This document shows positions 2,988 to 4,214 of a DNA stretch of 4,214 nt, in pieces. A model generated the notes under the pieces. The model saw nothing but the letters and a program-made list of their open reading frames with translations, was not told where the DNA came from and made no database searches. Source of the stretch: a virus (lineage: Duplodnaviria; Heunggongvirae; Uroviricota; Caudoviricetes); IMG/VR virus record IMGVR_UViG_2529292835_000008; one strand, written 5' to 3'. Position 1 is the first letter of the stretch. The number at the start of each line of letters is the position of its first letter. A program made the translations under genes and the position numbers.

Positions 2988-3008
2988 ATGGCCCTTCGGG
3001 GCCATTTT
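2988..3008 (+). promoter_or_regulatory. E-FI intergenic stem-loop with a TTCG tetraloop
   Basis: ATGGCCC (2988-2994) pairs with GGGCCAT (2999-3005), loop TTCG at 2995-2998, followed by TTT and a pyrimidine tract. The stem sequesters the in-frame ATG at 2988. Confidence 0.5.
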
Positions 3009-3026: not shown

Positions 3027-3413
3027 ATGACGAAAGATGAACTGATTGCCCGTCTTCAGGAGCTGGGTGAGCAACTGAACCGTGATGTCAGCCTGACGGG
3101 GACGAAAGAAGAACTGGCGCTCCGTGTGGCAGAGCTGGAAGAGGAGCTTGATGACACTGCCGATCAGGATACCCCTCTCAGCCCGGAAAATGCGCTGACC
3201 GGACATGAAAATGAGGTGGTATCAGCGCAGCCGGATACCGTGACTGATACGGCTGCTCTGGTCACGGTTGTGGCACTGGTGACGCTGCATACCGATGCAC
3301 TTCACGCCACGCGGGATAAACCTGTGGCATTTGTGCTGCCGGGAACGGCGTTTCGTGTCTCTGCCGGTGTGGCAGCCGAAATGACAGAGCGCGGCCTGGC
3401 CAGAATGCAATAA
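3027..3413 (+). CDS. FI: DNA-packaging / head assembly protein FI
   Basis: ATG 3027 is preceded by SD GGAGGA (3017-3022). The 128-aa product MTKDELIARLQELGEQLNRDVSLTGTKEELALRVAELEEELDD...MTERGLARMQ resembles lambda gpFI, with several substitutions and a small in-frame length difference in the acidic central region. Confidence 0.85.
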   Translation: MTKDELIARLQELGEQLNRDVSLTGTKEELALRVAELEEELDDTADQDTPLSPENALTGHENEVVSAQPDTVTDTAALVTVVALVTLHTDALHATRDKPVAFVLPGTAFRVSAGVAAEMTERGLARMQ

Positions 3414-3424
3414 CGGGAGGCGCT

Positions 3425-3778
3425 GTGGCTGATTTCGATAACCTGTTCGATGCTGCCATTGCCCGCGCCGATGAAACGATACGCGGGTACATGGGAACGT
3501 CAGCCACCATGACATCCGGTGAGCAGTCAGGTGCGGTGATACGTGGTGTTTTTGATGACCCTGAAAATATCAGCTATGCCGGACAGGGCGTGCGCGTTGA
3601 AGGCTCCAGCCCGTCCCTGTTTGTCCGGACTGATGATGTGCGGCAGCTGCGGCGTGGAGACACACTGACCATCGGCGAGGAAAACTTCTGGGTGGACCGG
3701 ATTTCGCCGGATGATGGCGGAAGCTGTCATCTCTGGCTTGGGCGGGGCGTACCGCCTGCCGTTAACCGTCGCCGCTGA
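3425..3778 (+). CDS. FII: Head-tail joining protein FII
   Basis: GTG start at 3425 is preceded by SD GGGAGG (3415-3420). The 117-aa ORF MADFDNLFDAAIARADETIRGYMGTSAT...GRGVPPAVNRRR matches lambda gpFII in length and sequence, and ends at TGA 3776-3778. Confidence 0.85.
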   Translation: MADFDNLFDAAIARADETIRGYMGTSATMTSGEQSGAVIRGVFDDPENISYAGQGVRVEGSSPSLFVRTDDVRQLRRGDTLTIGEENFWVDRISPDDGGSCHLWLGRGVPPAVNRRR

Positions 3779-3789
3779 AAGGGGGATGT

Positions 3790-4035
3790 ATGGCCATAAA
3801 AGGTCTTGAGCAGGCCGTTGAAAACCTCAGCCGTATCAGCAAAACGGCGGTGCCTGGTGCCGCCGCAATGACCATTAACCGCGTTGCGTCATCCGCGATA
3901 TCGCAGTCTGCGTCACAGGTTGCCCGTGAGACAAAGGTACGCCGGAAACTGGTAAAGGAAAGGGCCAGGCTGAAAAGGGCCACGGTCAAAAATCCGCAGG
4001 CCAGAATCAGGGTTAACCGTAACCGGCTCATTTAA
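3790..4035 (+). CDS. Z: Tail completion protein Z homolog, ending prematurely at 81 codons (lambda gpZ is about 192 aa)
   Basis: ATG 3790 is preceded by an AAGGGGGA SD-like run. Residues 1-77 (MAIKGLEQAVENLSRISKTAVPGAAAMTINRVASS...KNPQARIRVNR) match lambda gpZ nearly exactly. Similarity is lost from codon 78, and an in-frame TAA follows at 4033-4035. Confidence 0.7.
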   Translation: MAIKGLEQAVENLSRISKTAVPGAAAMTINRVASSAISQSASQVARETKVRRKLVKERARLKRATVKNPQARIRVNRNRLI

Positions 4036-4072
4036 ACCGTCTGGTCTGTTTCCTCCGGCTCTACAAAAATAA

Positions 4073-4094
4073 TGTCCATCATTTTTAATGGACA
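4073..4094 (+). other. AT-rich inverted repeat (hairpin) in the post-Z segment
   Basis: TGTCCAT (4073-4079) pairs with ATGGACA (4088-4094) around an 8-nt loop CATTTTTA. It lies in a locally AT-rich stretch (4060-4100), unlike the GC-rich coding sequence upstream. Confidence 0.4.
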
Positions 4095-4101
4095 CTATCG
4101 T

Positions 4102-4214
4102 ATGAAACACCGGACCTGGATCACTGAAGCTTTACGTCTTCACTTTGAAGAACATTTACCCCGGGTTGTGGCCGGGCGTCGCCTGGGTGTACCAAAATCA
4201 ACTGTTTGTAGTAT
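4102..4214 (+). CDS. Partial ORF (5' part only) encoding a helix-turn-helix-like N-terminus; identity unknown (divergent Z continuation or a DNA-binding/transposase-like protein)
   Basis: Frame 1 is open from 4036 to the window edge, with ATGs at 4072 and 4102. Translation from 4102 is MKHRTWITEALRLHFEEHLPRVVAGRRLGVPKSTVCS; the motif RRLGVPKSTV resembles HTH segments of transposase or regulator N-termini. No obvious SD precedes either ATG. Confidence 0.3.
   Translation, partial: MKHRTWITEALRLHFEEHLPRVVAGRRLGVPKSTVCS

Follow-up and report, generated by a model that had tools for sequence, protein, structure and literature searches.

An inverted repeat in the tnpA leader of an IS66-family insertion sequence in a prophage tail gene and its predicted role in read-through control

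What does a short, AT-rich inverted repeat do at the broken end of a phage tail gene, directly before a reading frame that runs off the available sequence? The question is posed by positions 4060–4101 of a 4,214-nucleotide stretch recorded as tailed-virus DNA (Caudoviricetes; IMG/VR record IMGVR_UViG_2529292835_000008), the whole of which is called the window in what follows. An initial annotation had noticed the inverted repeat, together with a weak sigma70-like pair of hexamers, and had proposed a promoter or operator of an inserted gene, a subterminal structure of a mobile element or a terminator for the truncated tail gene Z. The segment was found to belong to an insertion sequence (IS) of the IS66 family that has split Z, and comparison with related elements indicates that its hairpin is a conserved part of the control region of tnpA, the first gene of the element, at the IS66 left end. 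A hairpin that would sequester the ribosome-binding site, combined with a predicted promoter that starts inside it and would insulate tnpA from outside transcription, is the mechanism modelled here, and its chances of being correct are judged to be about even.

The insertion sequence in gene Z

The window carries a lambda-type head-to-tail module (the portal end, C/Nu3, D, E, FI, FII and the start of Z), in which lambdoid phage homology, at 98–99% identity, ends at 4019, so that the segment cannot be taken for the normal coding DNA of some variant of Z. For the remainder of the window, the annotation of E. coli genomes gives the left end of an 'IS66-like element' and the accessory gene tnpA, and positions 4000–4214 were matched in 1746 of 5426 complete E. 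coli genomes, in 5345 places; Pantoea stewartii ATCC 8199 has dozens of copies of the element. In E. coli 504237 (locus L001), which is identical to the window over 3752–4214, the full copy is visible: it is 2699 bp long, belongs to the ISCro1 group of the IS66 family and starts at window 4019. The terminal repeats are imperfect, with 16 of 22 positions paired between the left one (IRL; GTAACCGGCTCATTTAAACCGT, from 4019) and the right one (IRR; GTAAGCGACTCGTCAGAACCGT), and the terminal motif GTAA(G/C)CG...CCGTCT is kept in all relatives. The 8-bp target duplication GGTTAACC, at window 4011–4018, recurs past the right end of the IS (L001 7219–7226), beyond which the rest of Z continues; the 5' part of Z is labelled 'phage tail protein, incomplete' in the identical genome by the Prokaryotic Genome Annotation Pipeline (PGAP). 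The open reading frames (ORFs) of the L001 copy stand in the order tnpA, tnpB and tnpC, with the domains HTH_Tnp_1 (PF01527), TnpB_IS66 (PF05717) and DDE_Tnp_IS66 (PF03050) plus zf-IS66 and LZ_Tnp_IS66, respectively, and the PGAP name for tnpC is 'ISCro1 family transposase'. Just the first 113 nt of tnpA lie in the window, and these are identical to L001. Because GTAA-type terminal repeats, the 8-bp duplication, the tnpA-tnpB-tnpC order and the length of about 2.7 kb were all found, the element takes its place as a member beside IS66, IS679, ISCro1, ISEc8 and ISEc23. It is an IS66-family (ISCro1-group) insertion sequence splitting a prophage Z gene, and the hairpin is IS DNA, not phage DNA.

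The segment of interest lies 42–83 nt inside the IS, between the terminal repeat and the first gene, and the hairpin 51–80 nt from the tip of the element that starts at 4019, which bears out the proposal of a subterminal structure of a mobile element. A terminator for the truncated Z had to be abandoned: Z is cut by the insertion itself and its frame meets a stop at 4033–4035, inside the IS terminal repeat; additionally, the hairpin is IS DNA, no relative has a U tract after the plus-strand stem, and a terminator scan was negative.

The hairpin and its conservation in IS66 relatives

The perfect 7-bp inverted repeat of the initial annotation, TGTCCAT at 4073–4079 and ATGGACA at 4088–4094, is read directly in the sequence, with a loop of 8 nt, and the AT-richness that had been described is equally plain, the GC content being 0.29 for 4060–4100 versus 0.57 for the window and 0.56 for the Z part. 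The stem extends to 11 bp (4069–4079 with 4088–4098), with one A.C mismatch at 4072/4095, and a check of folding energy, which had also been suggested, gave −9.6 kcal/mol for the plus-strand RNA of the hairpin (z = −2.3). Perfect 7-bp repeats with loops of 3–10 nt occur five times in the window versus 2.2 ± 1.7 times in shuffles, and the 11-bp version with one mismatch occurs once versus 0.42 expected; from the window sequence alone, the hairpin is within chance expectation. The covariance models of Rfam 15 gave no match at E ≤ 10 in 3900–4214 on either strand, and a consensus scan of the same interval found no promoter, nor a terminator on either of the two strands. An integration host factor (IHF) site in the loop was rejected, no match to WATCARNNNNTTR being seen by eye. 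The hairpin is taken as real because of its conservation in related IS elements and not because of the statistics of the window.

The left ends of relatives were gathered via the TnpA protein, not via the hairpin, by tblastn of plasmids and by scanning a single genome for each species. In relatives from Escherichia, Citrobacter, Pantoea, Xenorhabdus, Erwinia, Mixta, Serratia, Hafnia, Klebsiella and Burkholderia, an inverted repeat built on GTCC...GGAC was found to end 3–10 nt before the tnpA start. The TnpA proteins of leaders sharing the repeat are 35–90% identical, and the IS tip and the tnpA start are a constant 81–92 nt apart. The outer stem differs by element: it is ATAATGTCC / GGACACTAT in the window, GATAGAGTCC / GGACTCTATC in Klebsiella (L095), GCGTCCATC / GATGGACGC in Hafnia (L086) and GCGTCCGC / GCGGACGC in Burkholderia (L099). 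The spacing from GTCC to GGAC is continuous from 11 to 18 nt across subfamilies and 11–13 nt within the ISCro1 group, and fold z-scores range from −1 to −6 across variants. Within the ISCro1 group, both arms and most of the loop are invariant while IS positions 25–47 diverge.

Covariation was evaluated in 14 subfamily representatives, which were anchored on the GTCC/GGAC core, extended outward without gaps and compared with 500 shuffles. Paired cells made up 84% versus 75 ± 1.6% in the shuffles, and cells changed on both sides numbered 14 versus 5 ± 1.9, with 0/500 shuffles reaching the observed value in each case; when the registers were slid out of phase, just 25–40% of the cells paired. A chance inverted repeat without function would agree with the frequency of 7-bp repeats of this kind, which turn up in shuffles as often as in the window, but the position, the core and the pairing are conserved across IS66 subfamilies with otherwise diverged leaders, and such an accident is scarcely conceivable.

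The location of the hairpin relative to the gene depends on where tnpA starts. That it lies just upstream of the terminal ORF, as initially described, holds for the ATG at 4102 (215 aa), but PGAP begins the gene within the 5' arm, at the in-frame ATG of 4072 (225 aa), a codon that depends on the A at 4072, as does the lone mismatch of the 11-bp stem. The upstream ATG or GTG is out of frame in L002, L003 and L020, where the loop is 1 nt longer, the upstream start codon of L016 is followed by an in-frame TAG, and the TnpA N-termini of relatives align at an ATG, GTG or TTG matching 4102. The longer TnpA from 4072 was rejected on these grounds; the true start of tnpA is likely the ATG at 4102, the PGAP start probably adds 10 codons too many in this subgroup, and the hairpin would therefore be leader and not coding sequence. 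A six-codon frame at 4088–4105 (ATGGACACTATCGTATGA; ATG GAC ACT ATC GTA TGA) opens within the 3' arm and ends in a stop codon that shares bases with the tnpA start codon (ATGA). It is found again in many relatives of the ISCro1 group (as GTGA or TTGA), is absent from L007 and L015 and is in frame in L042; without an SD (Shine-Dalgarno) site of its own, this leader frame is probably incidental.

The motif of the arms was also met in other settings. In a subgroup of Cedecea, Mixta and Pantoea formicae (L074, L077–L085, L087 and L089), three direct (A)TGGACAC(T) copies replace the inverted pair, and the first two hold an in-frame ATG (MDT...), which makes the tnpA start ambiguous; no SD hairpin is possible there. 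A Providencia rettgeri plasmid (L004 3005–3040) carries an isolated fragment of about 49 nt with the hairpin ATACTGTCCAT-8-ATGGACAGTAT, whose stem is a perfect 11 bp, the A.C of the window being replaced by a C-G pair; no IS66 terminal repeat or gene is nearby, and the fragment, which adjoins the gene of a helix-turn-helix (HTH) regulator on the other strand, is probably a relic of an IS66 left end. A LexA box (TACTGT...ACAGTA) was considered for this fragment and discarded, the spacing of CTGT and ACAG being 16 and not 8. In L001, the start codon of tnpC (5617–5624, IS position 1098) lies within ATGGACA, the motif of the 3' arm, which is probably a coincidence since it is not kept in L002.

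The predicted control device and competing explanations

A hexamer carrying the two critical −10 bases, an A second and a T sixth, was found exactly 3 nt 5' of GTCC in 16 of 19 leaders, versus 0–3 of 19 for the same pattern at other offsets, except for an overlapping register at offset 0 (9/19). A −35-like hexamer, TGGTCT in the window and TTGTGA, TTGAGA or TTGAGG in other subfamilies, stands 16–18 nt 5' of it, adjoining the terminal repeat. From the position of the −10-like hexamer, transcription of tnpA is predicted to start near 4078, the first base after GTCC. The proposal of a promoter or operator of an inserted gene was broadly apt in that the segment belongs to the 5' control region of tnpA, but the hexamer pair proposed is weak and one of its coordinates is wrong, the positionally conserved −10-like element being AAAAAT at 4065–4070.

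The best anti-SD pairing in the last 22 nt of the leader was the GGA(C) of the 3' arm in 21/21 leaders tested; it lies 7–9 nt before the start in most of them (at −12 to −8) and about 6 nt further upstream in the L012/L094 type. This GGA presumably acts as the SD of tnpA, and the GTCC core of the 5' arm is the complement of the SD-like GGAC. The 3' arm covers the GGA, and the region is paired in read-through folds: a model of read-through RNA (3990–4140) retains the hairpin in both its minimum free energy and its centroid structures, and the unpaired fraction of the SD zone is 0.00–0.38 in read-through models versus 0.38–0.65 in most models starting at −24. The RNA from 4078 is less structured than 200/200 shuffles (−3.7 kcal/mol, z = +2.1). 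The read-through fold also contains a second helix around the hairpin and the AUG, in which CCTCCGG of the leader (4051–4058) pairs with CCGGAC(C) of the coding region (4111–4116); within the ISCro1 group, CCGGAC does not vary, whereas CTCCGG is only partly conserved.

Taken together, these predictions would describe a simple device. The weak promoter of the element, with its −35-like hexamer beside the terminal repeat and AAAAAT at 4065–4070, would start transcription near 4078, right after GTCC, and because the start lies just past GTCC, the resident tnpA mRNA would lack the 5' arm, leaving the weak SD (GGA, 4090–4092) and the AUG at 4102 exposed. A transcript entering from outside, which here would be that of the phage late operon running through Z in the same direction as tnpA, would have both arms and would form the 11-bp hairpin, hiding the ribosome-binding site. 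Fortuitous outside transcription would then give no rise in TnpA synthesis, since the read-through hairpin would bury the site.

This would most likely be a device of an ordinary kind, with the same logic as that of IS10 and IS50, and one apparently not pointed out before for the IS66 family; in the literature searched on IS66, ISCro1 and IS679, no description of a tnpA leader, promoter, hairpin or transcription start was found. In the 'fold-back inhibition' of IS10 (Tn10) and the read-through control of IS50 (Tn5), only outside transcripts fold, and these are translationally silent. The precedents were reportedly set out by Davis, Simons and Kleckner in 1985, Krebs and Reznikoff in 1986 and Schulz and Reznikoff in 1991. 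The likeness lies in an inverted repeat near the left end, a distal arm over the ribosome-binding site and a resident start between or within the arms. The differences are that the IS66 device would control tnpA, which encodes an accessory HTH protein and heads a three-gene operon in another IS family, that the start is only predicted in IS66, and that neither antisense RNA nor Dam control is evident. In IS200, inverted repeats at the left end block impinging transcription and sequester the SD (PMC4513863); there, the SD stem-loop lies within the resident mRNA, which results in constitutive repression, and a separate terminator hairpin stands upstream, whereas the IS66 leader has a single hairpin and no conserved U tract.

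A number of observations weigh against the sequestering hairpin. The anchor of the covariation test was chosen by eye and the sequences are related, so that the shuffle test overstates significance. In the closest subgroup (12 sequences), there is no stem covariation: 8/11 pairs never vary, and the sole variable pair shows A.C, A-U, G-C and G.U freely; an early impression of compensation at 4072/4095 within the ISCro1 subgroup was given up, weakened by the presence of all four of these combinations. Wobble mismatches have no strand bias (about six minus-strand versus about five plus-strand G.U events, on our own count), and a constraint at the RNA level is therefore not demonstrated. Three direct ATGGACAC copies and no hairpin are found in L074, L077 and L089 (Cedecea, Mixta and Pantoea formicae), and direct copies of it are also present in L013, which still folds. 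The strict invariance of GGAC, including its C, and the conservation of the loop in the ISCro1 group go beyond the needs of a bare SD hairpin. The promoter of the window is weak, with a position weight matrix (PWM) score of about 4.5 and none found by the consensus scan, and the SD-like site is weak as well, at −3 to −5 kcal/mol across leaders, of which −3 is very weak.

Several of these observations are what would be expected if the arms were DNA operator sites for a protein, most plausibly the HTH protein TnpA, which would flank the start and the ribosome site and bring about autorepression. The hairpin potential would then be a by-product of two inverted (A/G)(T/C)GGAC(A/G)(C/T) copies, a symmetric change of both half-sites would mimic the observed covariation, and the missing wobble strand bias would fit a constraint at the DNA level. 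The GTCC/GGAC core is invariant in all aligned subfamilies, the arms of the ISCro1 group are nearly invariant while the neighbouring leader diverges, and the direct motif repeats in L074, L077, L089 and L013 are explained by an operator and not by a hairpin. Additionally, an IS3-family element with TTGGACAAC / TTAGACACC in its own ends inserts in IS66 leaders as well as in unrelated genes, each time 4–5 nt past GTGTCCA, and the Pfam HTH_Tnp_1 fold is common to its OrfA and the TnpA of IS66, which suggests that transposase-type HTH proteins can read the motif; OrfA and TnpA are, however, just 26–28% identical, and a shared specificity is not implied. The half-site spacing of 11–18 nt is continuous, without helical periodicity, which a rigid dimer would not tolerate but flexible or monomeric binding could, and such continuity is easier to reconcile with a hairpin than with a dimer site of fixed spacing. 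Since no further motif copies were found near either IS end, a part in recognising the ends is unlikely, and subterminal transposase-binding repeats at both ends were rejected, as no TGGACA/TGTCCA copy lies near the right end. On balance, the operator account, the chief competitor of the sequestering hairpin, is considered possible but rather unlikely, and a hairpin over the ribosome-binding site and a protein operator are not mutually exclusive. A more specific candidate, in which the (A/G)TGGAC(A/G)C repeats would be an operator bound by TnpA through its HTH_Tnp_1 domain to autoregulate tnpA-tnpB-tnpC, while the related HTH of the IS3-family transposase would read the same motif and so account for the homing of that element into IS66 leaders, is regarded as unlikely.

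Read on the other strand, the hairpin could be an intrinsic terminator that stops antisense or through-IS transcription at the left end, ends an antisense RNA or works bidirectionally as in IS200. On that strand, the window hairpin reaches −18.3 kcal/mol (z = −4.6, with 0/200 shuffles as stable) and is followed by UUAUUUUUG, 12/18 variants fold better on the minus strand, and the left end of IS200 offers a precedent (PMC4513863). The U tail is not kept, however, with 0–5 U in the first 8 nt and mostly 1–4, and the invariant last T of the conserved hexamer is an A on the minus strand, which fits a −10 box and not a U tract; the consensus terminator scan was negative on both strands. The version with an antisense RNA was rejected, since the downstream sequence holds no minus-strand promoter at a conserved position and the U tail varies, and a minus-strand terminator of any kind is held to be very improbable. 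The sigma70-like pair of the initial annotation is a different matter, as it would place a promoter in the loop with a start near 4096, giving a near-leaderless mRNA and leaving the repeat as mere promoter-flanking DNA. TCTACA is indeed present at 4060–4065, but TTTAAT, which had been put at 4083–4088 (where the letters are TTTTAA), lies at 4084–4089, and the spacer is 18 and not 17 nt. Only the homologous site of Pantoea stewartii (L016) is consensus-like (TTGACA-15-TATAAT, score 14.6), L075 has CTGACA-15-TATATT, L095 has, on our own reading, TTGACG-15-TATAAA, and the loop sequence is kept within the ISCro1 group. Against this, with at least 9/12 matches, a 16–18-nt spacer and the two critical −10 bases asked of a sigma-70 promoter, the window −10 has T in place of the key A at position 2 and the hexamer pair fails the scan (0 sites), the distance from the −10-like hexamer to GGAC varies (0, 3 or 7 nt), the spacer of the strong examples is just 15 nt, which is what chance resemblance of AT-rich loops to TATAAT would give, and the resulting mRNA would lose its sole SD-like element. 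A loop promoter is thus thought quite improbable; its transcript would likewise lack the 5' arm, and it would therefore be compatible with the sequestering hairpin.

Insertions in the leader, further features and significance

The IS3-family element just mentioned is about 1.42 kb long, has a programmed-frameshift transposase and the ends TGAACTGCGCCCCAGATCTTGGACAAC... and TGTAGTGCGCCCCAAAAGTTAGACACC..., and was found in 199/5426 E. coli genomes (337 copies), one junction type alone being present in 49 genomes. Copies lie in the hairpin loop in L003 (1586–3003), L005 and L006 (from about 1569), a loop remnant was seen in L064, and a copy stands at the centre of an L010-type palindrome in L071. 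The five further copies sampled (L100–L104) each sit 4–5 nt past (G)TGTCCA: two interrupt unrelated genes, at targets carrying GTGTCCAGC or GTGTCCATT, and the other three occupy further variants of the IS66 leader, with L100 and L103 hit at one and the same site. L101 and L102 lie outside a known palindrome. Insertion 4–5 nt past (G)TGTCCA was thus seen in 10/10 loci examined, most of them IS66 leader loops, in either orientation and in three hairpin variants. The target, which can be written as GTGTCCAT(N5), resembles the reverse complement of the motif in the terminal repeats of the element (TTGGACAAC / TTAGACACC). IS1397 and ISKpn1, also of the IS3 family, target palindromic units (PMC1525189); the present element is similar in inserting specifically into a short palindrome and differs in that its target is GTGTCCA plus 4–5 nt, often the IS66 leader loop, and not a repetitive extragenic palindrome or bacterial interspersed mosaic element (REP/BIME). 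In a Salmonella Poona plasmid (L005 2216–3068), a reverse-transcriptase gene, possibly of a group II intron, lies downstream of a degenerate IS3-family copy in an IS66 leader.

The features of the junction and the leader are collected in Table 1.

Table 1. Features at the junction of gene Z and the IS66-family element (window positions)
Feature	Position	Strand	Remarks
Lambda-type tail gene Z, 5' part	3790..4018	+	Phage matches stop at 4019; ORF continues into the IS, stop at 4033–4035 in the terminal repeat
Left copy of the target-site duplication, GGTTAACC, 8 bp	4011..4018	.	Repeated after the right IS end in L001
Left terminal inverted repeat (IRL), GTAACCGGCTCATTTAAACCGTCTG	4019..4043	+	16/22 match to the right end, GTAAGCGACTCGTCAGAACCGT
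Weak −35-like TGGTCT (predicted), adjoining the inner end of IRL	4042..4047	+	17 nt 5' of the conserved −10-like hexamer
−10-like AAAAAT (pattern nAnnAT)	4065..4070	+	3 nt 5' of the GTCC core; predicts a transcription start at about 4077–4079
Hairpin 5' arm, ATAATGTCCAT	4069..4079	+	Core GTCC (4074–4077) complements the SD-like GGAC
AT-rich loop, CATTTTTA	4080..4087	+	With 4088–4089 holds TTTAAT (4084–4089); recurrent IS3-family insertion point in relatives
Hairpin 3' arm, ATGGACACTAT	4088..4098	+	GGA (4090–4092) is the sole Shine-Dalgarno-like site, 9 nt before the start codon
tnpA, first 113 nt (IS66 accessory protein, HTH_Tnp_1)	4102..4214	+	Likely start ATG at 4102; runs off the window

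Elsewhere in the window, differences from L001, which has the same IS insertion, comprise substitutions and indels clustered around the B/C junction (261–320) and a 9-bp in-frame deletion with substitutions in FI (3157–3177). Because such mosaic differences flank an identical Z::IS junction, this lambdoid mosaicism means that the insertion either predates part of the recombination or was carried along by it. In the gene C/Nu3 region (256–1562), the window has four single-base deletions compared with the intact S49-peptidase C of L001 (one G lost from a run of five at about 864, one C from a run of three at about 912, and two bases at 1141–1142, the last creating a TAA), which split gene C into three frames and reflect either a decaying prophage gene or homopolymer sequencing errors. 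Two short G+C-rich hairpins, the terminator-like AAAGGCCGCCTGTGCGGCTTTTTTT after D (1921–1948) and ATGGCCCTTCGGGGCCAT directly after E (2988–3006), are not related to the IS leader.

Elements of the IS66 family abound in prophages and on plasmids that confer virulence or resistance, and the control of expression of their three-gene operon is essentially undescribed. If the operator candidate were true, one insertion sequence would be using the operator of another as a landing site. The predicted leader module, in which a promoter beside the terminal repeat is followed by an anti-SD arm and an SD arm, would offer a concrete model for the control of this operon; since the mechanism is a familiar one for insertion sequences, it would be useful and not surprising.

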